Below, one piece after another: positions 4,301-30,310 of a stretch of 64,000 nucleotides of DNA. The notes under the pieces were generated by a model. That model was not told the origin of the DNA, made no database searches, and was given only the letters and a program-made list of their open reading frames with translations. The stretch comes from a bacterium (lineage in GTDB: Bacteria; UBP6; JAFGXH01). How positions within the stretch are numbered: position 1 is the stretch's first letter; each line of letters starts with the position of its first letter. Both the position numbers and the translations under genes were made by a program. Where the stretch lies: positions 5,040 through 69,039 of the forward strand of contig JAMOQH010000126.1 in assembly GCA_027064085.1 (NCBI GenBank), written 5' to 3'.

Positions 4301-4814
4301 GTTGGTATTCTCCATCAGAAACCTTACCGTCAGTAAAAACTGCACTCATTTTAGATGTAGAAAAAGATGCAAATCCTGTTGCGTCACCTGTTAATAATTT
4401 TTTGGTATTAAATTCTGTTCTTGTTGAAATACCATCAACTTCATCCTTTAAAGCATCAACTTCTTTTTGAACTTCTATTCTATCATTAGAAGTAAGTGTA
4501 CCATTAGAAGCTTGAACAGCTAATTCTCTCATTCTTTGAAGAATTGAATGTGTTTCGTTTAATGCACCTTCAGCTGTTTGAAGCATTGAAATACCATTCT
4601 GAGCATTTTCATTAGCTTTATTAAGACCTCTTATTTGAGTTCTCATTTTTTCACTAATTGCTAAACCTGAAGCATCATCACTAGCTTGATTAATTCTTAA
4701 ACCAGTTGATAATCTTTTAATTGAAGATGTTTGTGCTTTTGTTGCACCTTGTAAATTTGTTTTAGCAGTTAAAGCTGCCATATTGTTTAAAACTGATAAC
4801 ATAATTTCCTCCAT
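1329..4814 (-). CDS. Giant flagellin paralogue 1 (1161 aa): canonical flagellin N-terminal D0/D1 and C-terminal D1/D0 flanking a ~800-aa central insert
   Basis: N-terminus has LSTGLRINQASDDASGLAISEKMRTQIRGL...ILQRMRELAVQA...TEFNTKKLLTG. C-terminus has IGAWVNRLEHTMANL...ESRIRDLNIAQETTKLSKSQILSQASTSMLAQANQQSQGLMSLLR. GGAGG Shine-Dalgarno 7 nt before the ATG. Confidence 0.85.
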   Translation of the reverse strand: MEEIMLSVLNNMAALTAKTNLQGATKAQTSSIKRLSTGLRINQASDDASGLAISEKMRTQIRGLNKANENAQNGISMLQTAEGALNETHSILQRMRELAVQASNGTLTSNDRIEVQKEVDALKDEVDGISTRTEFNTKKLLTGDATGFASFSTSKMSAVFTDGKVSDGEYQLEINAKAGTNQVQASSIFRVKDGVQSVESKDLNASAAEHKLSLNLGAGGNGDTTTLNLDFKVDGVNYLVNSVADEDDLTTSMSNLQTAFLAAGGAGADAGLSSKMTLTISGETAIFTMKDSSKDFTLEIDETATGGNTGNITNLNADQKGTFDVQHRTSKSGVAEFTNLNNLTTSPTSDSNYNLIVDEKGDGSMILDRLETVSGQDVTTTYQDDIYHIMGSSLKAGSTGFTEAKLDLDLTIANTGAVSLDFNLDGDPNNTITFTGSVAAVTAAGVTALADSFNADNRLNESIRAEADGLELKFYAINENKALDYKVQVDGVDAANDTVFGMTNTDDIWDAQFVTGMGKLGSTADAAFTTSSNSHHGTTALVEFTTDGSIGDAGLDAKVSFDGGNSWTYVEDIWDGSGSDKTATDGYYSLDFNNAFTNDGIPGNFQAGDRILIAMNDNANADPSAGGIVYNNYSLDITDSGADSNISMQIDVAGEIFNFDVDLDAATKTEAEIATDFITKFNSVVGSDGTKLSNAVSVVYDSTNHQLDFSALSDDFTMTHSEVGGNITTADTTVTRRYHNTEGDLTRIDAFDPKSGEYQMGVVTSHNNGALDEKMTTLGVAYMDQENGHVSLGSVDAKFSLNDTGTLPTDGSASFTATENGGGDVQASTTLKDIDRFYNADGQFILGENGETFSIYNAYGDKADVYIDGGDSLNDVVDKLRNAITSGVEDGGLGISTGSSALDQNIVSFVTESTAGSIESQQGSIVIRSAVSGANGRIFVSGSEQLKTALGLSETQNATENELDVTVKDSLSGTVVGTDTVSDNIIHNIVDGVEIEVDQSYDLQASYDTKAKNFVFKSEYGSKIETMKIVNNSTDFQIGANQGQTLNVNIMQSDAHSLKIDKVQVTDADEAKSAITQVDKAIEKISSERAKIGAWVNRLEHTMANLDVQSENQTAAESRIRDLNIAQETTKLSKSQILSQASTSMLAQANQQSQGLMSLLR

Positions 4815-4997: not shown

Positions 4998-7900
4998 TTA
5001 TCTCAATAAAGCCATAAGTCCTTGTGCTTGTTGGTTAGCTTGAGCAAGCATAGAAGTTGATGATTGAGCCAATATTTGAGACTTAGATAATTTAGTTGTC
5101 TCTTGTGCAATATTTAAATCTCTAATTCTTGATTCTGCTGCTGTTTGATTTTCTTCTTGTGCTCCAAGGTTATTGATTGTATGTTCTAATCTATTAACCC
5201 AGGCACCTATTTTTGCTCTAGCTGAAGAAACTTTAATAATGGCATTATCAACTTGAGTAATTGCTTCTTTTGCTTCATCTTGATCTGTAACTTGTACTCT
5301 ATCTACTTTAAGAGCATGAGCATCAGCTTGCATAATATTTGTATTTAGTGTTTGGCCTTGATTGGCACCAATTTGAAAGTCTGTTGAATTATCAACAACT
5401 CTCATTGTTTCTATATGTCTTCCTAAGTCACTTTCAAATACGAAAGATTTACTAGATTCATCAAAAGTTGCTTTAATATCATAATTTTGGTCTATTTCAA
5501 TATCAACACCTTTAACTATATTGTGCAGTATGTTATCACTTGTAACATCTCTTCCTACAAATTCACCGGTTAATGCATCATTAACAGTAATTTCTAATTC
5601 GTTTTCTTCTGCTTTATCTACATTAGAAATTCCTAGAGCTGTTTTTAATGCTTCACTTCCAGAAATAAATAATCTACCATTTGCTCCACTTTTAGGAGAA
5701 CGAATAACAATTGAGCCTTGTTGAGATTCTGTAGAATTTGGAATAGATTCTTTAACAAAACTAACTATATTTTCATCTAATTCAGAATTGCCGGTACTCA
5801 TTCCTAGTCCACCATCTACAACATCATTTGTAATTACATCTTTTAATTTATTTACTACATCTCTTAATGAATCACCTCCATCAATATAAACATCAGACTT
5901 ATCTCCATAAGCGTTGTATATAGAAAATGTTTCTCCATTTTGTCCAAGTATAAATTGTCCATCTGCATTATAAAATCTATCAATATCTCTTAGTTTTGTA
6001 GCTGCCTGGACATCTCCTCCGCCATTTTTATTAGCAGTAAAGCTAACTGTACCATCTGTTGGCAAAGTACCTGTTTCAGCTAAAGAAAATTTAGCATCAA
6101 CAGAACCTAAACTTGCTTGTCCACTAGTTTCATCAAAATAAGATACTTTTAAAGTTGTATTACTGTCATCAAGACTATTATTAGGATGGCTTGTTACTAC
6201 TCCCATTTCAAATTGTCCTGTTGTTGGATCAAATGCATCAACTCTTGTTAAATCACCATCTGTAGCTTGAAATCTTTTTGTAACAGAGCCATCTGCTGTT
6301 GTTATATTTCCACCTGTTTCAGAATGTGTCATAGTAAAATCGTCTTTTAAGGCAGTAAAGTTCATTTTATGTGTTCCTGAATCATAAGAAATACTCATAA
6401 CATCAGATAATTTTGTTCCATTACTACCAATTTGTGAATTAAAGTTAGAAATTAAATCACTTGCCATTTGGGCTTCTGTTTTGCTTGCTCCTTCTAGGTT
6501 TGTATTAAAATTGAATACTTCTCCTGCTACATCAATTTTTAATGATAAATTACTATCTGTAGCACTATCTGTAATATCTAAGCTTGTAGTATTATATGTT
6601 GTTGTATCTGGTATAGTATTTGCATTATCATTCATTGCTATCATAACTCTATCACCTGCTTTAAAACTACCAAGTAGCCCGTCATTTGTAAAGGCATTAT
6701 TGAAATCTAATGAATAATAACCATCTGTTGCTGTCTTATCTGTACCACTTCCATCCCAAATATTTTCTACATAAGTCCAACTACTTCCACCATCAAAGCT
6801 TACTTTTGCATCAAGTCCAGCACTACCAATGCTTCCATCTGTTGCAAATTCAATCAATGCACTAGTTCCACTATGGGAATTTGAATTTGCAGTAAATGCG
6901 GTATCCGCTGTAGCTCCCAATTTTCCTAAACCTGTTACAAATTGTGCATCATCAACTTCTCCTGCTGCAATTTGAGTAAAAAGAGCTGCATTTGCTCCAT
7001 CATCTCCAACCATTTGCATTTTATAATCAAGAGCTTTGTGTTGATCAAGAGCATAAAATTTAACTTCTCCTGTCGTTGTACTAGCCTCTGCTTTAATAAA
7101 CTGATTTAATCTATTATCTGCATTTATTGCATTTGCTAAAGTTACTGCATCAGTATTAGCATCAGCACCACCAAGAGCAACCTGAAAGTTAACTATATTA
7201 CTAGGGTTGCCATCTAAACTAAAGTTAATTTCAGCATTTCCAGCTCCACCAGCACCAGATAATGTCATAGGATAATCTAAATAAGCTTCTCTTAAACCTG
7301 TTGATCCTGCTTGTAGAGTAGTACCAATAATGTGATATATATCATCATCATAAGTTACACCACCATTTGCATCTTGGCCACTTACTGTTTCTAGGTTATC
7401 TAAAACCATACTTCCGTCACCCTTTTCATCAACTACAACTTTATAAGAGGCATCACTAGTAGGGCTATCAATTAAATTGTTTAAATTGGTAAATTCAGAT
7501 ATACCGTTTGCAGAACTTCTGTGAGTAACATTAAATAAGCCTTCTTCTCCAACAGCAAGGTTGTTACCCGCACCTGTTTCGTCAACTTTAAAAGTAAAGT
7601 CAACATTAGCATCTTTTGCTGTAAAAAGAACAGTATTGCCGTTAATAGTTAAATTCATTTTACTTGATAAACCTGCATCGGCTCCAGCTCCACCTGCTGC
7701 AAAAAATGCTGTTTGTAAATTACTTTGAGTTGTTGCTAAGTCAGTACCATCTATATTAGATGTAAAGCCATAGTCAACTCCATCTATTTTTATATTATAA
7801 TTACCTGTTGTAGTATTTGCTCCGTCAAGAGTAAAACTCATTTTATGTCGAGCTGGAGATGCGTTTAAGTCCTGAGATTCAACAGATTGAACTCCATCTT

Positions 7901-8474
7901 TAACTCTAAACATTGAAGTAGTTTGAACTTCTCCCTTTCCTGCAATAGCATTAACCTCTAATTGATATTCACCGTCTTTAACATGAGGTCCATAAAAATT
8001 AGCTTTCATTTGGCTTGTAGAAAAAGATGCAAATCCTGTTGCATCACCGGTTAGTAATTTTTTTGTATTAAATTCCGTTCTAGTTGAAATACCATCAATT
8101 TCATCTTTTAAAGCATCAACTTCTTTCTGAACTTCTATTCTATCATTTGAAGTAAGAGTACCATTAGAAGCTTGCACTGCCAATTCTCTCATTCTTTGTA
8201 ATATTGATTGAGTTTCGTTTAATGCACCTTCAGCGGTTTGAAGCATTGATATACCATTCTGAGAGTTTTCACTAGCTTTTTTAAGCCCTCTTATTTGAGT
8301 TCTCATTTTTTCACTAATTGCTAAACCACTAGCATCATCACTAGCATGGTTAATCCTCAGCCCTGTTGAAAGTCTTTGTATTGATTTGGTTTGTGCATTC
8401 GTTGCACCTTGTAAATTTGTTCTAGCCGTTAATGCAGCTAGATTTGTGTTGAATGATAACATAATTTCCTCCAT
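4998..8474 (-). CDS. Giant flagellin paralogue 2 (1158 aa), tandem to paralogue 1
   Basis: Same conserved N/C flagellin domains. The 20-nt leader and start (atttcatggaggaaattatg) are identical to paralogue 1. The terminal ~500 nt at each gene end are ~85-90% identical to paralogue 1 by eye, while the central region is diverged. Confidence 0.85.
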   Translation of the reverse strand: MEEIMLSFNTNLAALTARTNLQGATNAQTKSIQRLSTGLRINHASDDASGLAISEKMRTQIRGLKKASENSQNGISMLQTAEGALNETQSILQRMRELAVQASNGTLTSNDRIEVQKEVDALKDEIDGISTRTEFNTKKLLTGDATGFASFSTSQMKANFYGPHVKDGEYQLEVNAIAGKGEVQTTSMFRVKDGVQSVESQDLNASPARHKMSFTLDGANTTTGNYNIKIDGVDYGFTSNIDGTDLATTQSNLQTAFFAAGGAGADAGLSSKMNLTINGNTVLFTAKDANVDFTFKVDETGAGNNLAVGEEGLFNVTHRSSANGISEFTNLNNLIDSPTSDASYKVVVDEKGDGSMVLDNLETVSGQDANGGVTYDDDIYHIIGTTLQAGSTGLREAYLDYPMTLSGAGGAGNAEINFSLDGNPSNIVNFQVALGGADANTDAVTLANAINADNRLNQFIKAEASTTTGEVKFYALDQHKALDYKMQMVGDDGANAALFTQIAAGEVDDAQFVTGLGKLGATADTAFTANSNSHSGTSALIEFATDGSIGSAGLDAKVSFDGGSSWTYVENIWDGSGTDKTATDGYYSLDFNNAFTNDGLLGSFKAGDRVMIAMNDNANTIPDTTTYNTTSLDITDSATDSNLSLKIDVAGEVFNFNTNLEGASKTEAQMASDLISNFNSQIGSNGTKLSDVMSISYDSGTHKMNFTALKDDFTMTHSETGGNITTADGSVTKRFQATDGDLTRVDAFDPTTGQFEMGVVTSHPNNSLDDSNTTLKVSYFDETSGQASLGSVDAKFSLAETGTLPTDGTVSFTANKNGGGDVQAATKLRDIDRFYNADGQFILGQNGETFSIYNAYGDKSDVYIDGGDSLRDVVNKLKDVITNDVVDGGLGMSTGNSELDENIVSFVKESIPNSTESQQGSIVIRSPKSGANGRLFISGSEALKTALGISNVDKAEENELEITVNDALTGEFVGRDVTSDNILHNIVKGVDIEIDQNYDIKATFDESSKSFVFESDLGRHIETMRVVDNSTDFQIGANQGQTLNTNIMQADAHALKVDRVQVTDQDEAKEAITQVDNAIIKVSSARAKIGAWVNRLEHTINNLGAQEENQTAAESRIRDLNIAQETTKLSKSQILAQSSTSMLAQANQQAQGLMALLR

Positions 8475-8532: not shown

Positions 8533-8559
8533 TTATCGACCATTGTTTTTAAAACTAAA
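8533..8559 (-). promoter_or_regulatory. Sigma28 (FliA)-type promoter for flagellin paralogue 2
   Basis: The minus strand reads TTTAGTTT-N11-GTCGATAA, versus the consensus TAAAGTTT-N11-GCCGATAA (6/8 and 7/8 matches, correct spacing). It lies ~60 nt upstream of the ATG at 8474. Confidence 0.5.
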
Positions 8560-8732: not shown

Positions 8733-9821
8733 ATGTTGAAATATATTTTAATAATGATTATTTTTAGTTCTATTGCTTTTGGTTCAAGAATAAAAGATAT
8801 TTCTTATGTTAAAGGAGTTAGAAATAATAGTTTAATTGGTTATGGAATTATTGTCGGCCTTGATGGTACAGGTGATGATGATAAAGCTAAATTTACGATT
8901 AAATCTTTAGTAAATATGCTTGAAAAAATGGGAGTAAAATTTGATTCGAGGTCTTTAAAGGTAAAAAATGTAGCAGCTGTTATGGTAACTGCTAAGTTAC
9001 CACCATTTTCAAGAGTTGGTAATAAAATAGATATTGAAGTGTCATCAATTGGTAATGCCAAGTCATTAAGGGGTGGAGTTTTGATTATGACACCATTAAA
9101 AGGAGCTGATGGTAAAGTTTATGCTATTGCTCAAGGTAATCTGTCTGTTAATGGTTATTCTGTTAAAAGTGGGAAAACAAAATCTAAGGCAGTTAAAAAT
9201 CATTTAACTGTAGGCAGAATTCCTAATGGGGGTACTATAGAGAGAGAGTTAAAAAATTCTATTTTAAATAAATCATATTTAGATTTAATTTTAAAAAATC
9301 CAGATTTTACAACTGCATATAGATTAAAAAAAACAATTAATGAACAATTTGGTGAAAATTTGGCAAAAGCAATAGATAGTAATACCATAAGGGTAGTTCT
9401 TCCTGTTAGTTTAAAGGAAAATCCTATAAAATTTATTGCAATAGTTGAAAATTTAGATGTAAAAGTTGATACTCCTGCGAAAATTGTAATAAATGAAAGA
9501 ACTGGTACAATTATTATAGGTAAAAATGTAACAATTTCTTCTGTAGCTATTTCACATGGTAATTTAAATATTATTGTTGAAGAAAATGAAACCCTTAGTC
9601 AGCCTTCGGCTCTTAGTTTTGGAACAACTGCTAAAACTAAATCAACTAAAATAAAAGTAAAGGAAGATAATGCTGATTTTAGTTTATTACAAGATAAAGT
9701 TACTTTAGAAGATTTAGTTAAAGCTTTAAACTCTCTTGGTGTTTCAACTAGAGATATGATTTCTATTATTCAAGCCATAAAAGCTAGTGGAGCATTACAG
9801 GCTGAGTTGGAGATTATATGA
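8733..9821 (+). CDS. flgI: Flagellar P-ring protein FlgI
   Basis: Signal peptide, then [30 protein letters not shown]. Full-length similarity to the FlgI family, 362 aa. Confidence 0.85.
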   Translation: [362 protein letters not shown]

Positions 9822-10552
9822 TAAGTAAGAATATGTTGACAGAGCTTATTGGTAAGGATAAGACGATGTCCTATTCTACTACGAAGGCAACAGTTCATTC
9901 AGAGATAGGAAAACATAAGTCTTCTGCTAAAGATGAAAAAATTAAAAAAGTAGCAAAAGATTTTGAATCTTTATTAATAGGTGAAATATTTAAAGTAATG
10001 AGGAAATCTATTCATAAAACAGAACTAACTAAAGGTGGGTTTGGTGAAGATATATTTGAGTCTATGCTTGATGGAGAAATGTCTAAAAATTTAGCACAAA
10101 GAGATATGCTTGGTATATCAAAAATGCTTGAAAAGGAATTGCTTGGAAAAGCAAATAATACTATTCAAAAAAGTAGAAATTCAATATTACCAGCAATAGG
10201 TAGAATAACTTCTAAATTTGGAATGAGAGAGCATCCTATTACACATAAATTAAGCCATCATGATGGTGTTGATATCGCCTTAAAGGAAGGTACTCCAATA
10301 AAAGCTAGTTTAGGTGGCAAAGTTGTATTCTCTGGTAAACAAAATGGATATGGAAATGTTATTATTGTTAAAAATGGTGAATATGAAATGGTTTATGCTC
10401 ATTGTTCAAAATTATTGTTTAATAAGGGAGATAATGTAAAAAAAGGAGAAAAAATAGCTCTTTCTGGAAATACAGGTCGTTCAACAGGCCCTCATTTACA
10501 CTTTGAAGTAAGGCATAAAGGTAAAGCTATAGATCCATTTTCTCTATTTTAA
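9818..10552 (+). CDS. flgJ: FlgJ-like protein: N-terminal rod-binding domain fused to a C-terminal M23 (LytM) peptidase domain
   Basis: AKDFESLLIGEIFKVMRKS matches the FlgJ rod-binding motif. C-terminus has HHDGVDIA...GNTGRSTGPHLHFEV (M23 zinc-peptidase signature). The start ATGA overlaps the flgI stop. Confidence 0.7.
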   Translation: MISKNMLTELIGKDKTMSYSTTKATVHSEIGKHKSSAKDEKIKKVAKDFESLLIGEIFKVMRKSIHKTELTKGGFGEDIFESMLDGEMSKNLAQRDMLGISKMLEKELLGKANNTIQKSRNSILPAIGRITSKFGMREHPITHKLSHHDGVDIALKEGTPIKASLGGKVVFSGKQNGYGNVIIVKNGEYEMVYAHCSKLLFNKGDNVKKGEKIALSGNTGRSTGPHLHFEVRHKGKAIDPFSLF

Positions 10553-13592: not shown

Positions 13593-14312
13593 TTAGGATA
13601 ACTCAAACCAACTGACTTTTCCTATAATCTTAAAGTTAAGTTTTTGAGTAAGGGATAATGAATTTTTATTTTTGATAATAACATATACAAATGGTATTTT
13701 TTTATTTTCAATAAGTTTATTTATTAAATATTTAGTAATTTTTTCACCATAACCTTTGCGTCTGTAGCTTTTTAATGTATGAAAAAATCCCATTGCTCCA
13801 TCATCTTGGGTTATAATCCAGGAGATTAGCTTGTCTCCAATAAAATAACCAACTGATTCTCCATCTTTTATGCGAGTTTTTACATAGTCTAAAGAATATT
13901 CTGATTTATAAGGCCAAAAATCATTAACTATATTTGTATTTGAAATAGTTAAAGGAGGATATTTTTTTATAGTAAAAGCTTTATTTTCTAGATAAGCAAG
14001 TTTATAACAATTTTCTTGCCATATTATTTTTTTGTTGTTTGCAATTATATTTACAAATTCAGTATTTGTAGCAGCAAAATATTTTTCATTTTTAATAAAG
14101 GGTATAAAATCTTTTAATTCATTAATGTCATTAGCAGACAAGTGTACCCAACCCTCTGAGCGATTTTGTTTTATTGCTACACAATTTTTGTAAATTTCAA
14201 TTTCAGAAATTTTATTATCATTTAGTAAATTAATCATTGCACAATTTAATATTTTATCTTTATATAATATTTTAAGAGCTTTTTCTTTTAGTTTAGAATT
14301 TATTATTTGCAT
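13593..14312 (-). CDS. GNAT-family N-acetyltransferase
   Basis: The C-terminal GFFHTLKSYRRKGYGEKITKYLINKL matches the acetyl-CoA-binding motif. Confidence 0.55.
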   Translation of the reverse strand: MQIINSKLKEKALKILYKDKILNCAMINLLNDNKISEIEIYKNCVAIKQNRSEGWVHLSANDINELKDFIPFIKNEKYFAATNTEFVNIIANNKKIIWQENCYKLAYLENKAFTIKKYPPLTISNTNIVNDFWPYKSEYSLDYVKTRIKDGESVGYFIGDKLISWIITQDDGAMGFFHTLKSYRRKGYGEKITKYLINKLIENKKIPFVYVIIKNKNSLSLTQKLNFKIIGKVSWFELS

Positions 14313-14336
14313 TTTAATTCCTAAATCATAAATATT

Positions 14337-17300
14337 TTAATAAACTCGGTTTCTATATGCTTCAATAAAGTTTATTATTTTGGTGTTATTAGATTCTAAA
14401 GCATAGGTAAAAGCATTTTTACCTTTTTTATCTTTTATATTTGGATTTGCTTTGTTTCTTAGTAGTGTTTTGACTGCATCTACATTTTGAATTTTTATTG
14501 CTGAAATTAATGGAGTCGAGCCGTCGGTTAATTGATTATTTATATCTAGTTTTAATGTTATTGTAAAATCTAAAATCCAAGGATTTTTTGAAAAGACAGC
14601 TAGATTAATTGAATTTGAGTTCATACTATTTTTTTGACTAATATTACAATGCTTTTTTACCAGTAATTTTAATATTTTTAAATTATTACCATAAGATGCT
14701 TCAAGAAAAGCAGAGCTATTGGTTTGGGTTGTTAAATTTAAATCAGCTTTATTTTCAATGAGAAACTTAGCTATTTTAAAGTAATTATTATATATTGCAA
14801 TCATTAGAGGAGTGTAACCTATTTTAGTTTGTAAATTAATTGTTTTAGTTGTTGTTAATAATTTTACAATGTTAAAATATCCATTAAATGAAGCAATATA
14901 TAAAGGAGATTCCCCTTGGCTATTAGAAATTGTAATATCTGCACCCGCTTTAATTAGTTTTCTAACAAAATCTTCTCTTCCAAAATAAGTGGATAGAGCT
15001 AATGCTGTATAACCCATAATATTTTTACTGTTTAATATCGTTTTGTTTCTTATAAATATATTGAAATACTTATTATTATTTGTATAAATTGTTTGTAGTA
15101 AAGGTGTGATACCATTTTTATTAACGATATTAGTATCTGCACCTTTTTTAATAAGATAATCTATAATTTTATTGGATTTTGTTGTAAATGAATACAGTAA
15201 TGGACTACCTAAATTAAAATCTTTTTTATTTATATTAGCTCCTTTATTTAATAAAAACTTTACAAAGTCTAATTTTGTATTGTTGCTTAGAGCTGCAATT
15301 AAAGGTGTTATTCCTGTTGTTAAATCTTGGTCGTTAACATTGGCACCTAAGTTTATTAACTTTTTAGCTATATCCCATTGTCCATCATATATAGCAAGTA
15401 CTAAAATAGGGGTTCCATTATTACTTCTTATAGAAAAATCTACTTTGTAATCTAATAAATAATCTATAATGTTCCAATATTTATTAGTTAGAGCTGTTAG
15501 TAGTGGAGAGTATCTATATTTATCTAGTATTTTAGGAGATGCCCCATGTTTGATTAAAGCTTTTATTGCATCTATGTTATTCATTGTAATCGCTTTTAAT
15601 AGATAAGTCATTCCATTTGATAATTTTCTATTTAAGTCTTCTTTACCATTTTTTAGATATAAATTTAATATTTTATTATTATTATACGAAAGAGCAATAT
15701 AAATTGGGGTTTCATTATTTAAGTCTAGTCCATTAAACATAAAATCCTTTTTTATAAAAAAATTTATGAAATCTATGTTTCCTATTTCTGTGAGCCATGA
15801 ATATATTTGTACTTCATATTTTTTATCATCTGGGTTTATCTCTTTATTATATATAATTTTTAAAAGATCTTTTTTGTTAATATCTTCTATCCTTTTAGAA
15901 ACTTTATTTTCTACTATCACTTTAAATAATTCAAAATTACCTTTCCTTAGAGGAATTTGTGTAGTTGTGATATTATTAACATTATAACTATCTAATATTG
16001 CTCCATTTTTAATTAACCATTTAACCATTTTTGAGTTATTTTTTAATAATGCCAACATTACTGCAGAGGTATTTAAATTATTTGCTTCATTAATATCAAT
16101 GCCTTTCTTAAGTAAATATTTAGCAAATTCAATATTTCCTTTCATTGCAGTTAAATTTAGTAGTGTGTTACCATCCATGTCTTTTTCTGAAACATTTGCT
16201 CCATTATCAATTAATAATTTAGCTATTTCCCACTCTCTATTTTTTATTGCAATAAGTATTGGTTTAATTTTATCTTTTCCTACTTTATCAGGTGAAACTC
16301 CGTTTTTTAATAAAACTTTAACTATTTTGGGGTTATAGCTTTTTATTGCTTGAGTTAAGTAGGTTTCATGTTCGTTATTGATTAAGTTTAAATTAATTCT
16401 ATTTGAAGATATTAGCTCTAAAGCAGATTGTATACTGTTATAAGAAATTGCATGGGATAATGCGGTATTTCCACTTTTATCTTTTAAATTTAAATTTGCA
16501 TTGTTTTCAATAAAAAATTTTACGATATTATAATTATTTTTAGATGCAGCAATCATTAATGCTGTTTTATTATTGAATTTCTTATCAATAAAAATACCAT
16601 GGTTTATTAGATATTTTACAATATCTAGATTTCCTCCTTCAGAGGCATAAGTTAAAATATCTATGTCTAAATCTTTTGAATCTCTAAAAATTGCACCTTT
16701 TTTTATCAGTAATTTAAATATATCATAGTTTCCATATTTTGCAGCAATATGTAATGGAGTTTCTTTTAATTTATTTTTTAAATAAAAATTATATGATTTG
16801 TTTTTCAATAAGTAAGAAACGAGTTCTGTATTTCCACTTCCTATCGCGTACACTAAGCATGAATTACCATTTTTATCTAAGTTGTATAAATCAAGATTTA
16901 ATGACTCTAAATATCTAAATATATTTATTTTACCTGATATTGAGGCCATAAAAAGAGCATTTTGAAGTTTAGTATTTTTTACAAAAATATTTGCCTTATG
17001 TTTTATTAATAATTTTAGTGTTTCTAGATTAGAATAATATGATGCAAGCAAAAATGGAGTATTTCCTTGATTATCAATTGCTTCTAAATTTTTATCATAT
17101 TCTAATACTTTTTCTATAATTTTTATATTTGAACCTTTTACTGCAAAGTGCAAAAGAGTATTATTATCTTTATCTCTTAAGTATGGGTTTGCCCCTTTTT
17201 TTAACAATACTTCAAAACTGTTATAATCTCCACTTTCAGCGGCTTTCATTAGTAATGTTTGTTGATTTATATCAAGGTGATTTACATTATTTTTATTTAT

Positions 17301-17435
17301 GCTTTCTAGATTTTTATAATAGGAGCTTTTTAATATATTATTTCTATATTTAGAGCTTTTTAAGTTGTGGTTTCCACAGCTTAAAAAGAAAATTAACATA
17401 GAAAATAAAACAACTAATCTCTTTTTTAATTTCAT
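14337..17435 (-). CDS. Giant ankyrin-repeat lipoprotein (1032 aa, ~28 ANK repeats)
   Basis: Lipobox LSCGN after the signal peptide. Reiterated TPLH/TALM...G...VK.LL..GA.N motifs throughout. Confidence 0.85.
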   Translation of the reverse strand: MKLKKRLVVLFSMLIFFLSCGNHNLKSSKYRNNILKSSYYKNLESINKNNVNHLDINQQTLLMKAAESGDYNSFEVLLKKGANPYLRDKDNNTLLHFAVKGSNIKIIEKVLEYDKNLEAIDNQGNTPFLLASYYSNLETLKLLIKHKANIFVKNTKLQNALFMASISGKINIFRYLESLNLDLYNLDKNGNSCLVYAIGSGNTELVSYLLKNKSYNFYLKNKLKETPLHIAAKYGNYDIFKLLIKKGAIFRDSKDLDIDILTYASEGGNLDIVKYLINHGIFIDKKFNNKTALMIAASKNNYNIVKFFIENNANLNLKDKSGNTALSHAISYNSIQSALELISSNRINLNLINNEHETYLTQAIKSYNPKIVKVLLKNGVSPDKVGKDKIKPILIAIKNREWEIAKLLIDNGANVSEKDMDGNTLLNLTAMKGNIEFAKYLLKKGIDINEANNLNTSAVMLALLKNNSKMVKWLIKNGAILDSYNVNNITTTQIPLRKGNFELFKVIVENKVSKRIEDINKKDLLKIIYNKEINPDDKKYEVQIYSWLTEIGNIDFINFFIKKDFMFNGLDLNNETPIYIALSYNNNKILNLYLKNGKEDLNRKLSNGMTYLLKAITMNNIDAIKALIKHGASPKILDKYRYSPLLTALTNKYWNIIDYLLDYKVDFSIRSNNGTPILVLAIYDGQWDIAKKLINLGANVNDQDLTTGITPLIAALSNNTKLDFVKFLLNKGANINKKDFNLGSPLLYSFTTKSNKIIDYLIKKGADTNIVNKNGITPLLQTIYTNNNKYFNIFIRNKTILNSKNIMGYTALALSTYFGREDFVRKLIKAGADITISNSQGESPLYIASFNGYFNIVKLLTTTKTINLQTKIGYTPLMIAIYNNYFKIAKFLIENKADLNLTTQTNSSAFLEASYGNNLKILKLLVKKHCNISQKNSMNSNSINLAVFSKNPWILDFTITLKLDINNQLTDGSTPLISAIKIQNVDAVKTLLRNKANPNIKDKKGKNAFTYALESNNTKIINFIEAYRNRVY

Positions 17436-17465
17436 GTTTTTCCTTATTAAAAGTTTTAAGTAATC

Positions 17466-18626
17466 TTAGAATACAAATTTTTTACTATCATAAAAATCTT
17501 GCCAAAGTTTTTCTTTTTTTCCTCTCTTTTTAACAATAGCATTAAAATAATTTTTTAAAACAGATATATCATCATAATTGTCCTTTATTAAACTTCCAGA
17601 TATATTTCTTGCAATGTGTAGAGGAGAAATATTTCCTTTATCGTAATAATGAGCATCAAGTGCTGCTAAATAGAAAACAGAAACTGCTTCAGCTGTAGAT
17701 ATAGTGGAGTTCATTTTCTCTAGCTTTTCACCATTTTTACCTACGCCATTTCTAAGTTCACTAAATGTTATTGCAAGCATTTCTACTAAGTTATTATTTA
17801 TTTCTATGTTTATATCGTTATAGGATAATAATTTCTTACTTTCTTTTTTTATGATTTCTGTTTCAAGCTTCAAGTTGTCAATGGGTTTAACTGTTTCAAA
17901 GTTAAATCTTCTTTTAAGTGCAGAGCTCATTTCATTAACTCCTCTATCTCTAGAGTTTGCTGTTGCAATAATATTGAAACCTTTTTGTGCAAATAATGTA
18001 GAATCTGTTTCTGGGATATTTAAAACTTTATCACTCATAATGCTTATTAGTGTATCTTGTATTTCAGATGGAACTCTTGTGATTTCTTCAAATCTTGTAA
18101 TAACACCTTTTTCCATGCCTACATAAATAGGGGAGGGAATTAATGCTTCTGGTATTGGCCCTTTTGACAGTAAAAGGGAATAGTTCCAACTATATTTAAT
18201 ACTATTTTCTGTAATACCTGCTGTTCCTTGGATAGTATTTTTACTGTTTCCTGAAATTGCAGCAGTAAGTAGTTCACTTAACATTGTTTTGGCTGTTCCA
18301 GGTTCACCTATTAGCATTAAGCCTCTATTACCAGTAAGAGTTATAATTGCTCTTTCTATAAGTGAGTCATTACCAAAATATTTTTGTTCAATAATAATTT
18401 CCTTTTCTTTTTTATCAACTTTATATTTTAATTTTTTTCCATTACTTCCTAGTATGAATGTTCTTACCATTTTAGGGGATAGTTTAAAAAAGCTTGGTTT
18501 AGGATAATTATCGTTTTGAGCTAATGCTTCGAGCTCATCTTTATAAATAAGCTCCATTGGAGGCTTTATTATATGTAGGTCTTTTTCCATTTTATCCTTT
18601 AATTTTTTTATAATATTTTTTAGCAA
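17466..18626 (-). CDS. AAA+ ATPase, AAA_5/MoxR-CbbQ-like, with an uncharacterised ~160-aa N-terminal region
   Basis: Walker A is LIGEPGTAKT. Walker B/sensor region is ITRFEEITRVPSEIQDTLISIM...FNIIATANSRDRG...SALKRRF. Confidence 0.5.
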   Translation of the reverse strand: MLKNIIKKLKDKMEKDLHIIKPPMELIYKDELEALAQNDNYPKPSFFKLSPKMVRTFILGSNGKKLKYKVDKKEKEIIIEQKYFGNDSLIERAIITLTGNRGLMLIGEPGTAKTMLSELLTAAISGNSKNTIQGTAGITENSIKYSWNYSLLLSKGPIPEALIPSPIYVGMEKGVITRFEEITRVPSEIQDTLISIMSDKVLNIPETDSTLFAQKGFNIIATANSRDRGVNEMSSALKRRFNFETVKPIDNLKLETEIIKKESKKLLSYNDINIEINNNLVEMLAITFSELRNGVGKNGEKLEKMNSTISTAEAVSVFYLAALDAHYYDKGNISPLHIARNISGSLIKDNYDDISVLKNYFNAIVKKRGKKEKLWQDFYDSKKFVF

Positions 18627-19272
18627 AAGTTAATACTTTTTTTATTTTTGCAACGGTAATCTTATAATGTTTTGCAACATTTATTATTGCTGAATTTAAT
18701 GAAATATGTTTGTTCCTTTTAAATTCTTGTGATATTTGTGCTAAAATTTGATAATCATATTGAAGCAAATAGTGTTTTATACCTTTTTTTTGTAGATTTT
18801 TTTTAGACAGATAATCATTAAATTTAACATTTAACTTAACTGATTTGTCTTTTAGTATTGCTTCGTAGTTAGCAACTACCCCTGAAAATCTTTCAACATA
18901 CATATGTTTGATATCTACAACTATATGTTTTCTTTTTTTCATATATTTATTGGTAAATTCTTCAAGAAATGCTTTTAATTCTTTAGCTCTTAAGTTATAT
19001 GGAATAGATATTTCATAATAAATATAATTATCACCTGTTTTTTTTATTTTTTTATTTTTATTTATTCTAAAATTTAAACCTAGTAACGACTCACCTTCTG
19101 CTGACTTATGATTATTAAAATCATCTGCAAATTTTATTGTTTTATCCATTAATATGTCAAGATTTGCAGGGTCTCTATAATCTTCTATGATACAAGATGT
19201 CATTAATATTGAAATTATAATAAATATGAAATAATTATTTTTTATTGTTTTCTTGTCGTTTAACAAATTCAT
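18592..19272 (-). CDS. Hypothetical lipoprotein, overlaps both neighbours (same operon)
   Basis: Signal/lipobox ILMTSC. No recognisable domain. 35-nt and 38-nt overlaps with the flanking genes. Confidence 0.4.
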   Translation of the reverse strand: MNLLNDKKTIKNNYFIFIIISILMTSCIIEDYRDPANLDILMDKTIKFADDFNNHKSAEGESLLGLNFRINKNKKIKKTGDNYIYYEISIPYNLRAKELKAFLEEFTNKYMKKRKHIVVDIKHMYVERFSGVVANYEAILKDKSVKLNVKFNDYLSKKNLQKKGIKHYLLQYDYQILAQISQEFKRNKHISLNSAIINVAKHYKITVAKIKKVLTFAKKYYKKIKG

Positions 19273-19564
19273 TTATTATTACTTTATCCTCATTACTTAT
19301 GTTCGTGAATTTTATACCCATTTGACCATTGTTTACCCATGCAATAATTCCTTCAGCATAAGCAACCTTATTATTTAGTTCCGGAAAATGTAAGTCTACA
19401 TATACTTCTGTTCCTACTTTTTCAAGTTGTGTTGCTATTATTTTAACTCCACCAACACTTACATCAATTATTTTCTGAAACATTAAAACTTCATTTCCTG
19501 TATAATCAATATATGCTTCACCGGATATTCGAACATGTTGTCTCTTTTGATTGTTTTCTGTCAT
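19235..19564 (-). CDS. PilZ-domain protein (c-di-GMP receptor-like)
   Basis: RQHVR (RxxxR) and DVSVGG (DxSxGG) PilZ signature motifs. Confidence 0.6.
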   Translation of the reverse strand: MTENNQKRQHVRISGEAYIDYTGNEVLMFQKIIDVSVGGVKIIATQLEKVGTEVYVDLHFPELNNKVAYAEGIIAWVNNGQMGIKFTNISNEDKVIINEFVKRQENNKK

Positions 19565-19567
19565 TTT

Positions 19568-20383
19568 TTAGTCTCCACATAGATAGAAAGGGTCATATCT
19601 TTTTATTTTTTTACAAAATTTATTTGCTTCTTTTTTATTTCCTATTAATGAATAAGTGTTTTCTATTTTTATTAATAATGAAATATTTTTATTGTTCTTT
19701 TTGTATAGACCTAGGAATACTTTAATAGCTTTATTGTAATGTTTTCTTTTTAGTAATCTTATAGCTTTCATATTTAATGCATTTTCTTCTGATGTGAAAC
19801 CTAAAGATATCTTAATCTTTCTAAGTTCTTTATTTCCAGCATCTCCTAATCCTGCAGGTAAAATAAAACTTGGTTCATTGTTTTGTGCAACATCTGAATC
19901 TTGATTATTATCTTCTGACTGAGGCATTGACTCAGGATGTCTAGGACGAGGCACCACCTCATCCTTACGAGCGAGAGCATTCTTTTTTAGATAGATGATT
20001 TCTACTTTTTCATTAGAGGCAAGATTTTGCTGTTTTATTTTTTTTACTCTTGTATAAATTTTATCATCAATCTTCAAAGAGTTGATGTTATCTTTTTTAA
20101 AGGTTACATCTCTTAAGTACTCAAATTTATCTAATTTATCCTCTTTAACAAATAATTTTAATTTTTTACCATTTATATTTCCTTTCATTAAATGATATAA
20201 AATGTATTGTTCACCTTCAAATTCTTGTTTAATTATTCTGAAAACAGATATCTCATTTTTATTTTGTGAAATAGTTGCTTTATTGCCCGATCCCATTGTA
20301 TTTACTTTCCAGTCACCAATATAAGAGTTTGAAAGTAAGATTGTTGTCAATGAGAAAAAAATTACCATTATCAAGTATTTCAT
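19568..20383 (-). CDS. Secreted hypothetical protein with a possible C-terminal TPR-like region
   Basis: N-terminal signal peptide. Acidic/Gln-rich linker. C-terminal helical repeat-like sequence. Confidence 0.35.
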   Translation of the reverse strand: MKYLIMVIFFSLTTILLSNSYIGDWKVNTMGSGNKATISQNKNEISVFRIIKQEFEGEQYILYHLMKGNINGKKLKLFVKEDKLDKFEYLRDVTFKKDNINSLKIDDKIYTRVKKIKQQNLASNEKVEIIYLKKNALARKDEVVPRPRHPESMPQSEDNNQDSDVAQNNEPSFILPAGLGDAGNKELRKIKISLGFTSEENALNMKAIRLLKRKHYNKAIKVFLGLYKKNNKNISLLIKIENTYSLIGNKKEANKFCKKIKRYDPFYLCGD

Positions 20384-20488
20384 TGCTCACTCCAAAGATA
20401 TATACCCTAATGATATCGTAATAGCTATAGAAAAATCAAATAAATTATCACAAAATGTTAAATATTGTCATTTTAAAGAAATAACTTA

Positions 20489-21223
20489 CTATTTTATAGA
20501 GTATAAAATAGTTTTTAGTTGCTTTTTAGGGATTCGAGAACCTAAAAAAGAAGCTGTGCCATTTTTGTTTTTCCATATAGCAACAGAAAAACCTTTTTTA
20601 TTTTGTATAAAATATGTTCTATTTTTAATTTTTAGTTTTTCAAATTTGGAAATGGAATCTAATTTATTTATATTTTTATATAATAACTTGTGACCTCTAT
20701 AGTGGTAATAAAGTAAGGGCTTTTTTTTATTAAAGGCCAAACCTAATGGGGTTATCTTTATTTTATTTTTATCAAATTGCAATAATTTAAATTTTTTATA
20801 GTTATGATACTTTATCCATTTTGATAGTTTTGTTTCATTATTTGACGCTATTTTTATGTCTTTTTTCAAATCTAATTTATAATCATTTGATAATGTAGAG
20901 TAGCCCATAGAAATTTTTGATATAAAAATAACTGATATAAATAGGGCTGCTATACTTGCCATTCCTTTTGTTGTAAAAAAATTGTAATTAATTGAAAATT
21001 GTTTTTTATTATTAAGAATTCTTTCTCTTAACTCAGAAGGTGCTTTTGGCATTGTTTTTTTTACTTCTGATTTTAAAAATTTATGAAATTCTGATTCATA
21101 ATTATATAAATTTCTACAAGTAACACAAGATTTTAGATGTTCTTCAACTTCCAAATACTCTTGTTCTGTAAGTTCATTATCTAGATAATTATATAGAAAC
21201 ATTTCAACCGTTTTACAATTCAT
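20489..21223 (-). CDS. Putative anti-sigma factor (zf-HC2-like N-terminus, single TM)
   Basis: N-terminal CxxC...H...C (HLKSCVTCRN) typical of ECF anti-sigma factors. Immediately downstream of the ECF sigma gene, with a 1-nt intergenic gap. Confidence 0.45.
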   Translation of the reverse strand: MNCKTVEMFLYNYLDNELTEQEYLEVEEHLKSCVTCRNLYNYESEFHKFLKSEVKKTMPKAPSELRERILNNKKQFSINYNFFTTKGMASIAALFISVIFISKISMGYSTLSNDYKLDLKKDIKIASNNETKLSKWIKYHNYKKFKLLQFDKNKIKITPLGLAFNKKKPLLYYHYRGHKLLYKNINKLDSISKFEKLKIKNRTYFIQNKKGFSVAIWKNKNGTASFLGSRIPKKQLKTILYSIK

Positions 21224-21224
21224 A

Positions 21225-21878
21225 TTATCCTACCAATTTTATAATTTTGTTGATATTTTTATTTGTTTTCTTATCTTCTTTTAATATACCCATTTCTTGA
21301 GCTCTTGCATATAATTTACTTTGAAGTTTTTTTCTTGCTCTAAATAATTGACTCATTACTGTTCCCATTGGAGCATCTATTATTTCTGAGATTTCTTTAT
21401 AGGAAAACTCATATACATCTGCATATAAAATCATCATTTTAAAGTTATCGGGAAGAGAGTCTAGTTCCTTATAAATATCTTCACCTAATTTTTTGAAAAA
21501 ATATTTATTTTCAGGAGAGCGATTTTCCTTTTTTACGCTATCTTCAAGCCAATTATAGTAAACACTTTCATTGTCGTTAAAATCCATAATTAAATTTTCT
21601 CTTCGTTTTTTTCTGTAATCATTTATAAATGTATTTGTTAGGATTCTAAACAACCATGCTTTTAGGTTTGTATCTTCTTTAAATTTTTTATAGTAGCGAA
21701 ATGCTTTTAGATATGTCTCTTGGACCAAATCAGAGGCTTTTGATTCATCTCTTGTAAATTTAAGAGCCAAGTAATATAAATTGTCCATATATCTTATCGC
21801 TTCTGTTTCAAACTTCTTTCTTTTATTATTAAACAAAATAATACCTCCTTCTATAATCAATATAAAATCAATTATCAT
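21225..21878 (-). CDS. ECF-family RNA polymerase sigma factor (sigma-70 region 2/4)
   Basis: LVQETYLKAFRYYKKF...LKAWLFRILTNTFINDYRK region-2 motif and a C-terminal region 4. The true start is probably internal (MDNLYY...). Confidence 0.7.
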   Translation of the reverse strand: MIIDFILIIEGGIILFNNKRKKFETEAIRYMDNLYYLALKFTRDESKASDLVQETYLKAFRYYKKFKEDTNLKAWLFRILTNTFINDYRKKRRENLIMDFNDNESVYYNWLEDSVKKENRSPENKYFFKKLGEDIYKELDSLPDNFKMMILYADVYEFSYKEISEIIDAPMGTVMSQLFRARKKLQSKLYARAQEMGILKEDKKTNKNINKIIKLVG

Positions 21879-24471: not shown

Positions 24472-24678
24472 GAGTAATTATACAAAAGTTAAACAAATTT
24501 TAAGTTTCAGTTACAAATATCAAACAAGTGATATACTAAAAACCAGTAAAACGCTGTAATTTGCTTAACTTTTCAAGTGAAAATGCGATAAGAGAGAGTA
24601 TATGTATTCACTTTGGTGAGCAGTTGAACGACAGTATAAAAGACAAATTTATTTGGCTTTTATACTCAAACACTATCC

Positions 24679-25518: not shown

Positions 25519-25806
25519 ATGGCAAGAGTAACTGTAGAAGACTGCCTAGTGAAAATACCAAATAGATTTGCATTAGTAATTCTTGCAACACAAAGAACAA
25601 GAATGTTGCTTAGAGGAGCTGATCCAAAAATTGAAAGTGATAATAAATTTCCTGTTATTGCTCTTAGAGAAATCGCAGCAGGTTATGTAAGATTTACAAG
25701 AGATGTAGAAGAAGAATTAAAAGAAACATTTGATGAATTTAAAATCTCTTATTACTACCCAAAAGAAAAGAATACCGATGAAGTTTCAGGATTAACTCTT
25801 ATTTAG
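25519..25806 (+). CDS. rpoZ: DNA-directed RNA polymerase omega subunit
   Basis: [30 protein letters not shown]. Preceded by a GGAGGG Shine-Dalgarno. The track ORF start at 25381 adds 46 low-complexity residues and is probably not the real start. Confidence 0.75.
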
Positions 25807-26758
25807 TATTTTCTATTTTTATTTTTAAATAATTTGCAATTTCAGTATTATTTTCGTCTATAGCAATTTCAAAACTATTTTTTCCATTATTATTTTCTTG
25901 TGTAATATCAGCACCAGATTCAACAAGTACTTTTACTATTTCAAGGTTTTTGCTCATTACTGCACTCATTAAAGCGGTCCAGTTGAAGTTCGTTTTAGTG
26001 TTTACATTTGCTCCATAACCTAGAATAAGCATTACTGCATCGAGTTTTCCTGATTTAGCAGCACTCATTAATGTAGTCCAACCATCTCTATTTTGGGAGT
26101 TCATTTTTATACCTATAGAGTCTAAAAATGTCATCATTTCAATATTTCCTTTTTCTGAAGCAATTATCATTAAATTTGATTTGTTTTTATTTTTTCTCCA
26201 AAATTTAGGCATTTTAGTTTTAATATATTTAAGTATCTCTAAATTACCTCCTAACACAGCAAATTGAATTATTGTATAACCTTCATATAATCCTTCTTCT
26301 ATTTTAAATTTGATATGAACTTTATAGGTTTCTATTAATTTTTTGAAATTTTTATAATCCCCATTTTCTGTAACTATTGAAATTAAATTTCTACCATTAA
26401 AGTTAAATTTATTAAGTTTTGCTTTATTTTTTAATAATTCATTAAAAACTTTATATCTTTTATTTAAATAAGCAATTATTATTGGTGTATTATCTAAAGA
26501 ATCAGGTTCATTAATATCATTTATTTTATTTTTTATTAACCATATAGAAATATCATCGTAACCTTTTCTTATGGAATATATTAAAAAACTATCTGTTTTA
26601 TTTATTTTTTTATTTAACTTATAACCTTTTTGGTGAAATTCTTTTAAATCTTGTAAACGCCCTCTTTCTATTGCTTCAAGAGGTGTTTTAGCTTTACAAG
26701 ATGATAATATAATTAATAATATTATTAAAAATATATATAAGATTCTTTTAATTTTCAT
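25799..26758 (-). CDS. Ankyrin-repeat lipoprotein (319 aa)
   Basis: Lipobox ILSSCKA followed by 6-7 ANK repeats. Confidence 0.75.
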
Positions 26759-27796: not shown

Positions 27797-28878
27797 TTAT
27801 CTATGTATTCTAGAACTTTTTTTAAAATTATTTCTTCTGTTTTTTGTTTAGGTAGTAAATCAAAGCTAGATTTCATTTCAGAATATTTTTCAGGAGAATT
27901 TTTTAATTCCATGATTTTACTGATTAGAATATCAGGAGTTAAATCTTTTTCTTCTATCATAATAGCTGAATTACTATCCACTAATTCTCGTGCATTTAAA
28001 ACTTGATGATTATCCGTAGCTTGTGGAAACGGTATTAAAATAGATGGTTTTTTAACTAGTTTTAATTCAGAAAGAGTAGTCGCTCCAGCTCTGCATATAA
28101 TTAAGTCTGCATTATTATAAGCAGTTGACATATCCTCTATAAATGTTGTTAATTCGATGTTTTCGGCTTTAGGATTAAATTTAGAGTATAATTCTCTAGT
28201 TTTGTCATAGGTGTATTTACCTGTTTGGTGAATGATATTAAAATCTTTTAAGTTAGGAGATGCTTCTGCAATAATTTCATTTATTTTTCTAGCTCCTTGA
28301 CTTCCACCAAATATTAAAATATTTTTGATTTCACTGTTACTTTTTTTTATTTCTATTTCTCTGATTGCTTTTCTTACTGGATTTCCACTAAATACAATTT
28401 TTTCTTTTTTAAAAAATTTATGTGAATATTCAAATGTTGTAAAAATATTATTTACAAACTTACTTAATATTTTGTTGGTAATACCTGGAACGGAGTTTTG
28501 TTCAAAGATAAATGTAGGATATTTCTCCATCCATGCAGATATTAATGCTGGCCCCGATGCATAACCTCCTAAACCAATAACAGCATCAGGAACAAAATTA
28601 TTTATTATTTCTTTGGATTTAAATATAGAACTTGGGATTTTAAATAAATTTTTTATAGTATTTTTTTTACTTGTACCTTTTATTCCGCCAATATCAATTA
28701 ACTCTAATTTAAAATTTGTTGCAGGAACTTTTTCCACTTCAATACCTTTTTTAGTTCCTATGAATAAAATATCTACATTTGTTAGGTTTTCTTTGAGATA
28801 GTTGGCAAATGCCAAGCCTGGAAATAGGTGGCCACCTGTTCCTCCTCCTGCAAAAATGAATCTATAATTTTTTTTCAT
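27793..28878 (-). CDS. murG: UDP-N-acetylglucosamine--N-acetylmuramyl-(pentapeptide) pyrophosphoryl-undecaprenol N-acetylglucosamine transferase
   Basis: FAGGGTGGHLFPGLAFANYL N-terminal G-loop plus a GT28 C-terminal domain. Confidence 0.85.
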   Translation of the reverse strand: MKKNYRFIFAGGGTGGHLFPGLAFANYLKENLTNVDILFIGTKKGIEVEKVPATNFKLELIDIGGIKGTSKKNTIKNLFKIPSSIFKSKEIINNFVPDAVIGLGGYASGPALISAWMEKYPTFIFEQNSVPGITNKILSKFVNNIFTTFEYSHKFFKKEKIVFSGNPVRKAIREIEIKKSNSEIKNILIFGGSQGARKINEIIAEASPNLKDFNIIHQTGKYTYDKTRELYSKFNPKAENIELTTFIEDMSTAYNNADLIICRAGATTLSELKLVKKPSILIPFPQATDNHQVLNARELVDSNSAIMIEEKDLTPDILISKIMELKNSPEKYSEMKSSFDLLPKQKTEEIILKKVLEYIDK

Positions 28879-29636: not shown

Positions 29637-29644
29637 ATATTCTC

Positions 29645-30301: not shown

Positions 30302-30310
30302 CTAATCTCC

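Follow-up and report, generated by a model that had tools for sequence, protein, structure and literature searches.

The present analysis concerns a 64-kb stretch (the window) of a 92-kb contig from the low-GC (~27%) metagenome-assembled genome (MAG) of a flagellated diderm bacterium, and within it an operon-like block whose conserved unit is five genes, encoding a secreted lipocalin-like/TPR protein, a PilZ protein, a lipoprotein, a YehL-type MoxR ATPase and an ankyrin-repeat lipoprotein. Comparison with related loci, all of them metagenomic contigs (given L numbers below), indicates that selection maintains the block as a genuine unit, yet a young and narrow one. The gene combination is both real and undescribed: neither a literature search nor PADLOC returned a described system that joins PilZ, a MoxR ATPase and ankyrin repeats, in agreement with a preliminary description of this DNA that had not recognised the combination. 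The function that we infer for it is that of a cytoplasmic chaperone, modulated by cyclic di-GMP (c-di-GMP), which would aid export or assembly of the operon's own envelope proteins, possibly within the flagellar regulon, and we put the probability of this reading at roughly 0.4. Support for it comes from a block that stays intact while its flanks change, from intact PilZ motifs, and from the absence nearby of the partners with which YehL-type ATPases are usually encoded.

Conservation of the block

The five-gene block recurs in at least five metagenomic lineages, in three upstream and two downstream neighbourhoods. Block-bearing loci have ATPases 95% (L014/L015), 91% (L001/L002), 89% (L013) and 79% (L008) identical to that of the window; the block's opening genes are also present on three short contigs (L011, L012 and L017), and a metagenome scan with a profile of the lipoprotein added only two short contigs. 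The secreted protein measures 247–279 aa and the lipoprotein 223–229 aa across loci. The PilZ protein and the ATPase evolve slowly (77–92% and 79–95% identity to the window, respectively) and the three exported proteins fast (48–81% for the TPR protein, 48–85% for the lipoprotein and 52–89% for the ankyrin protein). Upstream of the block lies an extracytoplasmic function (ECF) sigma/anti-sigma pair in the window, L001/L002 and L014, a divergent fliL-fliM-fliN in L008, and a radical-SAM gene with two unknown genes in L013. Downstream of the ankyrin gene are a GNAT gene and the gene for pyruvate, phosphate dikinase in the window and a convergent ftsA-ftsQ-ddl in L001/L002. The ATPase is present in every contig that extends past the lipoprotein gene, and no version of the block lacking it was found in homologue searches with the lipoprotein and the TPR protein or in the metagenome scan.

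The nearest relatives of the ATPase (P0001–P0015, 71–95% identity) form a clade with 100% neighbour-joining (NJ) bootstrap, and canonical YehL partners are lacking in all members examined. The ATPase appears to have been recruited into the block after loss of those partners, and in one sub-lineage it became fixed in mid-block. Chance juxtaposition, which the preliminary description had entertained, is at odds with the recurrence of the PilZ-lipoprotein-AAA_5-ankyrin block across lineages; conservation is incomplete all the same, in that sister lineages hold solo ATPases and the distribution is narrow.

Operon structure and borders

Coordinates are collected in Table 1. Successive junctions from gene 1 to the GNAT gene measure +3, -38, +1, +30 and +24 nt. 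The PilZ gene starts 3 nt past the stop of gene 1 in the same frame, and its 38-nt overlap with the lipoprotein gene is also found in L001, L008, L011 and L013. The ATPase has its true, conserved start at an ATG (18590) that follows AAAGGA and lies one base past the lipoprotein TAA, the junction reading ...AAAGGATAA A ATG...; this 374-aa reading is also the public gene call, its length fits homologues of 370–375 aa, and the same junction in orthologous loci is a 4-nt overlap or a 7–8-nt gap. The five co-directional open reading frames (ORFs) of the preliminary description, all on the minus strand, are as reported, as are the 38-nt overlap and the short gaps after the ATPase gene (30 nt) and the ankyrin gene (24 nt), whereas the 35-nt overlap that it gave for the second junction came from a spurious upstream in-frame TTG. 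TGA is a stop codon here, judged by long intact ORFs in the window, and an apparent TPR-PilZ fusion (P0151, 361 aa; L011 855–1940) was rejected as an artefact, since a TGA stop separates the TPR and PilZ genes on this low-GC contig and the public call, made under genetic code 4, took it for Trp.

Table 1. Positions of the promoter-like motif, the five genes of the block and the adjacent GNAT gene in the window
Feature	Position	Strand	Remarks
Promoter-like motif	20413..20444	(-)	Invariant blocks upstream of gene 1
Gene 1, 271-aa secreted lipocalin-like/TPR protein	19568..20383	(-)	Always first gene of the block
Gene 2, stand-alone 109-aa PilZ protein	19235..19564	(-)	PF07238
Gene 3, 226-aa lipoprotein	18592..19272	(-)	Signal peptide and lipobox; no known domain
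Gene 4, 374-aa YehL-subfamily MoxR AAA+ ATPase	17466..18590	(-)	AAA_5, similarity to E. coli YehL
Gene 5, 1032-aa ankyrin-repeat lipoprotein	14337..17435	(-)	Ank_2, lipobox
Adjacent 239-aa FR47/GNAT acetyltransferase	13593..14312	(-)	Pfam FR47; outside the conserved unit

The unit begins at the TPR gene because an alignment of upstream regions shows an invariant motif before gene 1. At its other end, the GNAT gene (Pfam FR47, 56.6 bits; a single-member cluster at 90%) has no homologue in any related locus by tblastn, a comparison in which L001/L002 lack GNAT after the ankyrin gene and the remaining contigs reach no further than the end of that gene. The GNAT gene may be co-transcribed in this strain, yet it lies outside the conserved unit. 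The borders first drawn thus need moving at both ends, since they left out gene 1 and took in the GNAT gene.

The ATPase and its missing partners

Pfam places AAA_5 (PF07728) in the ATPase at 108.9 bits (E = 2.6e-31), beginning at residue 91 of 374 (residue 103 in a 386-aa reading), and BLASTP aligns residues 6–370 with residues 7–358 of E. coli YehL at 45% identity (E = 6e-114). The region before AAA_5 had been described as a novel N-terminal region of ~160 aa; it is ~90 aa long and, since its alignment to E. coli YehL begins at residue 6, is a family feature. Walker A is GEPGTAKT and Walker B is FEE, as in YehL, and the protein has no hydrophobic segment, so that it is predicted to be cytoplasmic. 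Some 8000 homologues, mostly of 365–375 aa and 55–60% identical, occur in Clostridia, Bacilli, Bacteroidota and Acidobacteriota. By these comparisons the ATPase is an ordinary full-length YehL-subfamily MoxR AAA+ protein. Throughout the YehL family, E. coli YehL included, the Walker B motif (residues ~165–170 in the window protein) is FEE, where MoxR 2r44 has ADE; Glu in place of the usual Asp is a subfamily-wide trait.

The protein does belong to a named family, which is the YehL subfamily and not GvpN, NorQ or CbbQ, the candidates named in the preliminary description. The GvpN model TIGR02640 scored 21.6 bits against a cut-off of 266.8 bits, and among PDB matches at E <= 0.01 (MoxR-like 2r44, a pair of McrB-type chains and a single unrelated chain with a weaker match) there was no CbbQ or NorQ chain. 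A scan of genome contigs with the single ATPase sequence gave one irrelevant match, 41% identical. MoxR proteins have seven named subfamilies, YehL among them (PMC3893208, which cites Snider and Houry), and a literature search (DUF5682, yehLMP) found no function for it.

In its canonical and highly stable neighbourhood YehL stands with DUF4132 (YehI), DUF5682 (YehM), VWA_CoxE (YehP) and a SWIM-type protein (YehQ), an arrangement seen in E. coli, Tepidibacter, a Tannerella MAG and a Pyrinomonadaceae MAG, that is, in Gammaproteobacteria, Clostridia, Bacteroidota and Acidobacteriota. Tepidibacter hydrothermalis (L004 5390–16421) has two tandem YehL-DUF5682-VWA_CoxE sets, with a HEAT-repeat protein before them and a SWIM-like protein after. 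Searches of the window and eight related loci for these partners were empty, both by tblastn with E. coli and Tepidibacter queries and with profile hidden Markov models (HMMs) of VWA_CoxE, DUF5682, YehQ and DUF4132, each built from four or five sequences (three for DUF4132). The pairing of MoxR proteins with VWA proteins, on which the preliminary description had remarked, holds for the YehL subfamily in the form of YehP, and the lack of a VWA gene, which it had also observed, makes the window a true exception.

The PilZ protein and the exported products

The PilZ domain (PF07238) scores 46.6 bits against a cut-off of 22.5 bits (E = 4.6e-12), and six orthologues, 77–93% identical, all keep R8xxxR12 and D34xS36xxG39 unchanged. 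The 109-aa protein is thus predicted to be cytoplasmic and to bind c-di-GMP. A PDB sequence search found no close solved relative, and no GGDEF or EAL gene was present among the window ORFs scanned. Hydropathy shows just three N-terminal signal segments among the operon products and no polytopic or membrane-spanning component, and this is consistent with two cytoplasmic products (PilZ and the ATPase) and three exported ones (the TPR protein, the lipoprotein and the ankyrin protein).

The AlphaFold2 (AF2) model of the 271-aa protein has a signal peptide or helix, an eight-strand barrel, a disordered linker of ~80 residues and two C-terminal TPRs; its mean predicted local distance difference test score (pLDDT) is 66, with 70–90 in the barrel and TPR regions. 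Foldseek matched it to TPR proteins at a root-mean-square deviation of ~1.5 Å and weakly to lipocalins, and the L008 orthologue gave sub-threshold Pfam scores for TPR_2 (24.7 bits, cut-off 27) and TPR_19 (24.3 bits, cut-off 25). Its C257 and C269 are invariant, a C-terminal pair that fits a periplasmic disulfide. A word-indexed search of 5.8 billion proteins found 11 homologues of this protein and six of the 226-aa lipoprotein, for which an exhaustive HMMER search of 1.84 billion representatives gave six 50% clusters. The lipoprotein has no Pfam or NCBIfam match. Its family lipobox is ..L[MV][TS]SC, with Cys27 invariant in 11/11 sequences, so that lipidation is predicted, and the signal peptide and invariant Cys uphold its initial description as a lipoprotein; its AF2 model, of low confidence (pLDDT 62), gave no PDB fold match at E <= 0.001. 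We considered whether the lipoprotein or the TPR protein could be a hidden VWA or DUF5682 relative and rejected this, as neither AF2 model (pLDDT 62 and 66) had a VWA-like match and the partner HMMs were also empty, a negative that is weak for the lipoprotein with its low-confidence model.

The ankyrin protein matches Ank_2 at 428.6 bits (E = 3.4e-131) in 13 stretches and has ~28–29 repeats of the 33-residue ANK type (29 hits by an iterated repeat HMM), close to the 28 counted before. Its signal peptide and L-[SG]-C lipobox are kept in the window, L014, L001 and L008, and orthologues read FFL[SG]C or YFLSC; lipidation is again predicted, as the preliminary description had it, and its PilZ, AAA_5, ankyrin and GNAT identities likewise agree with Pfam. 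Colinear orthologues are 89%, 67% and 52% identical to the window protein, and the similarity of the L008 orthologue exceeds mere repeat likeness, because the two are colinear over 434 residues. No signal peptide of the exported products has a twin-arginine motif.

These features bear on two other explanations of the locus. One is the unit as originally described (13593–19564), in which PilZ, the lipoprotein, a MoxR protein with a novel N-terminus, the ankyrin protein and GNAT act together and the ankyrin protein is a scaffold in place of the VWA partner. The domains and their co-directionality were confirmed and no VWA gene is nearby, but GNAT was found in no related locus, of which only L001/L002 extend past the ankyrin gene, the N-terminus is that of an ordinary YehL, and both the TPR gene and the promoter-like motif lie outside the span. 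The exported ankyrin protein, moreover, cannot serve the cytoplasmic ATPase as an adaptor because the compartments differ, PilZ and the ATPase being cytoplasmic with no membrane-spanning component among the products, and we regard this explanation as very improbable. A second could be a conflict or anti-phage system based on an NTPase, in which the MoxR protein would be the switch and the ankyrin protein would sense or carry out the response. Ternary conflict systems of the MoxR-vWA type are on record (PMC7159879), and PADLOC matched the ankyrin protein to its PDC-M72A, Ankyrin and MzaA models, but these matches stem from the ankyrin repeats only, and the protein is a lipoprotein. Since there is no effector domain (nuclease, protease or TIR) and the flanks are housekeeping and flagellar genes rather than a defence island, such a system is hardly credible here. 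In the same PADLOC analysis the ATPase gave one weak partial match to REase_II (E = 6.3e-05, 19.3 bits), and the PilZ, lipoprotein, TPR and GNAT proteins had no match.

The promoter-like motif

Alignment of the region upstream of gene 1 from six loci with different upstream genes showed two invariant blocks, TTTATTTGATTTTT-N10-TTACGATA, while the remaining spacer had diverged. The motif may alternatively be read as TTGATTTT-N11-TACGATAT, and it ends ~30 nt ahead of a GGAG ribosome-binding site and the ATG of gene 1. The consensus for sigma-28 promoters is TAAAGTTT-N11-GCCGATAA. Three giant flagellins are encoded in the window (1329–4814(-), 4998–8474(-) and 33420–36410(-); 1161, 1158 and 996 aa), each of which has ~800–930 aa inserted between Flagellin_N and Flagellin_C ends that are themselves normal. 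The gene at 4998–8474 has a near-consensus promoter at 8559–8533 (TTTAGTTT-N11-GTCGATAA) and that at 33420–36410 a sigma-28-like promoter at 36525–36499 (TTTAGTAT-N11-GACGATGT); both fit the consensus better than the operon motif does, and all three have the N11 geometry and a CGAT core in common. Sigma-28 control of the operon is possibly indicated, and we treat it as a lead, not a result. Generic scans for sigma-70 promoters and terminators gave counts at chance level.

The ECF sigma and zf-HC2 anti-sigma pair (20489–21878(-), 1-nt gap) lies directly upstream of the operon in the window and is missing from the L008 and L013 contexts; its own upstream region is conserved. An autoregulated promoter of this adjacent sigma factor was considered as an identity for the motif and found no support, the sigma gene's own upstream region being sigma-70-like and without the motif, and L008, L013 and L011 retaining the motif with no sigma gene next to it.

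The motif is also relevant to an explanation in which the locus serves the flagellum as an accessory module. The exported proteins would surround the motor of an unusually thick, giant-flagellin flagellum as a scaffold in the periplasm, with PilZ as a YcgR-like c-di-GMP brake and the ATPase as an assembly factor. Structures of PflA and PflB (TPR proteins) and FlgP (a lipoprotein) of Campylobacterota would offer an analogy. The sigma-28 geometry of the motif would agree with such a role, as would the proximity in the window of flgI, flgJ and the three giant flagellin genes, the divergent fliLMN of L008, and the precedent of ycgR as a FliA-controlled PilZ gene (PMC8669469). Against it, none of the proteins has sequence or fold likeness to known flagellar components in Pfam, NCBIfam or a PDB fold search, and the L013 context has no flagellar genes. 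The promoter assignment, too, is putative. We consider such a module improbable.

Proposed function

In the chaperone reading, a hexamer of the ATPase would act as a cytoplasmic chaperone or holdase dedicated to those exported proteins that the operon itself encodes. Chief among these clients would be the 1032-residue ankyrin solenoid, expected to fold too fast for post-translational Sec export, and the ATPase would either keep it export-competent or help the ankyrin, lipoprotein and TPR proteins to assemble into an envelope complex. The PilZ protein, translationally coupled in the operon, is a natural candidate regulator of the ATPase, and in its c-di-GMP-bound form it would tune the ATPase, taking the place of the VWA adaptor as regulatory partner. 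Should the promoter depend on sigma-28, the operon would share its expression with late flagellar genes, like ycgR in E. coli, where the PilZ protein YcgR and other c-di-GMP proteins are under FliA control (PMC8669469). A dedicated holdase or remodeller for so large an ankyrin lipoprotein is plausible because of two precedents: designed ankyrin repeat proteins (DARPins) that fold rapidly are poorly translocated by the post-translational Sec route (PMC9594773), and MoxR1 is needed for twin-arginine translocation (Tat) export of RipA in M. tuberculosis (PMC4810496).

Several observations weigh against this chaperone reading. Solo ATPases of sister lineages occur in four unrelated contexts: L003 (79% identity) beside a signal peptidase and a DUF285/EGF protein, L009 (77%) with the ATPase alone, L006 (72%) beside a methyl-accepting chemotaxis protein and a B12-binding protein, and L007 (71%) beside a KTI12-type kinase and ferritin, none with a PilZ, lipoprotein, TPR or ankyrin homologue within reach. 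The ATPase can therefore work without the operon, and its association with the block is therefore young and narrow. Module-bearing ATPases tend to cluster, with an NJ bootstrap of only 58%, and the block is known from a narrow group of metagenomic contigs, so that its conservation may partly reflect inheritance. In L018, where the lipoprotein has a distant homologue (31% identity), the genes before it encode a LysM protein and a different lipoprotein instead of PilZ. The canonical partners might sit elsewhere in the genome, the search having covered 64 kb of the 92-kb contig. No genuine fusion was found among the block genes, and hydropathy revealed no inner-membrane component to link cytoplasmic and exported products. 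The motif agrees with the sigma-28 consensus at just 5/8 + 5/8 positions, with the correct spacing, and its -35 half is unlike that of the flagellin promoters; the shared pattern TTNANTTT-N11-NNCGATNN occurs 3 times in the window against 0.7 expected, two of the three sites being promoter positions given above. Finally, both the PilZ-ATPase and the ATPase-client interactions, and with them the functional link as a whole, would be read only from gene order in a narrow uncultured lineage.

The principal alternative is a shared transcript without interaction, in which a roaming general MoxR chaperone landed in an envelope/PilZ operon and was kept there by inheritance. The solo ATPases, 71–79% identical in unrelated contexts (L003, L006, L007 and L009), speak for it, as does the separation of the cytoplasmic ATPase and PilZ from the other three, exported products. 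The lipoprotein family predates the block, since the L018 context differs, and eukaryote-like repeat genes, ankyrin genes included, abound in the genome, among them those for a second ankyrin-repeat protein (25799–26758(-), 319 aa) and an RCC1-repeat protein (46126–48480(+), 784 aa), so that an ankyrin gene is more likely to lie beside any given gene by chance. Mere co-expression does not, however, readily account for an ATPase that stands in mid-block and not at an edge, its distance from one neighbour being a 1–8-nt gap or a 4-nt overlap and from the other ~30 nt, nor for an arrangement that outlasts at least three upstream and at least two downstream rearrangements while neighbouring genes drop to ~50% identity, with no ATPase-less block found. 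We judge this alternative somewhat unlikely. If it is nevertheless correct, the locus is an ordinary lineage-specific operon.

The chaperone reading could be taken further, to a VWA-independent MoxR system in which PilZ couples c-di-GMP to a YehL-type chaperone that exports or assembles an ankyrin lipoprotein complex, timed by the flagellar sigma factor, although this fuller version is doubtful. If true, it would assign the first client and the first regulator to any YehL-subfamily ATPase and would be the first dedicated chaperone for export of a bacterial ankyrin protein. Members of the YehL subfamily number in the thousands, E. coli K-12 having one of them, with no known function or client, and a natural variant without the four canonical partners is a simpler system in which both the clients and the regulator have candidates. 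A real link would also tie c-di-GMP signalling to AAA+ chaperone activity and hint at how bacteria export very large, fast-folding ankyrin solenoids.

Other features of the window

The third match to the shared promoter pattern, at 24565–24591(+) (TTAACTTT-N11-GCGATAA), is antisense, with no obvious downstream gene, between an HlyIII gene and a gene that is presumably rpsO, placed by synteny with L001 and not checked in the window. An FlgJ-like protein (9818–10552(+)), directly after flgI (8733–9821), has its rod-binding domain fused to an M23 peptidase, not a muramidase. A cassette of three genes in a row (28875–33292(-)) concerns signalling by cyclic nucleotides, encoding a CHASE2 and class III cyclase protein (993 aa), a cyclic nucleotide monophosphate-binding protein (218 aa) and a metallo-beta-lactamase/class II cAMP-phosphodiesterase-like protein (253 aa). 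At 54640–64000(+) a giant secreted repeat protein of at least 3120 aa, whose ORF runs off the window, has a signal peptide and DUF11, DUF7619, DUF7507 and SdrD_B domains.

Comparison with known systems

Among known systems, the closest likeness of the ATPase is to that of E. coli yehI/yehLMPQ, as it is homologous to YehL over its full length, from the ~90 aa at the N-terminus to the Walker B motif FEE, whereas here PilZ and three exported proteins replace the YehI, YehM, YehP and YehQ neighbours. NorQ/NorD, CbbQ/CbbO and RavA/ViaA belong to the same AAA+ clade and likewise have a dedicated ATPase encoded beside the proteins that it presumably matures, but at the present locus there is no VWA/MIDAS adaptor and the neighbours are envelope proteins, not a metalloenzyme. 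The Bat/aerotolerance operons have the order MoxR-DUF58-VWA-TPR and an ATPase of the MRP subfamily (AAA_3). They too have a MoxR ATPase co-transcribed with TPR and membrane or envelope proteins, although their AAA_3, DUF58 and VWA components are all missing from this locus. The MoxR1-RipA pair of M. tuberculosis is a precedent for a cytoplasmic MoxR ATPase that acts on a protein before its export (PMC4810496); there the client is a peptidoglycan hydrolase exported by Tat, whereas here no twin-arginine motif is present and the candidate client is the ankyrin lipoprotein. YcgR, lastly, differs in having an N-terminal domain where the protein of this operon is PilZ alone, but the two have in common that a PilZ protein, small and here with its c-di-GMP motif intact, is encoded behind a promoter, here putative, of sigma-28-like geometry.

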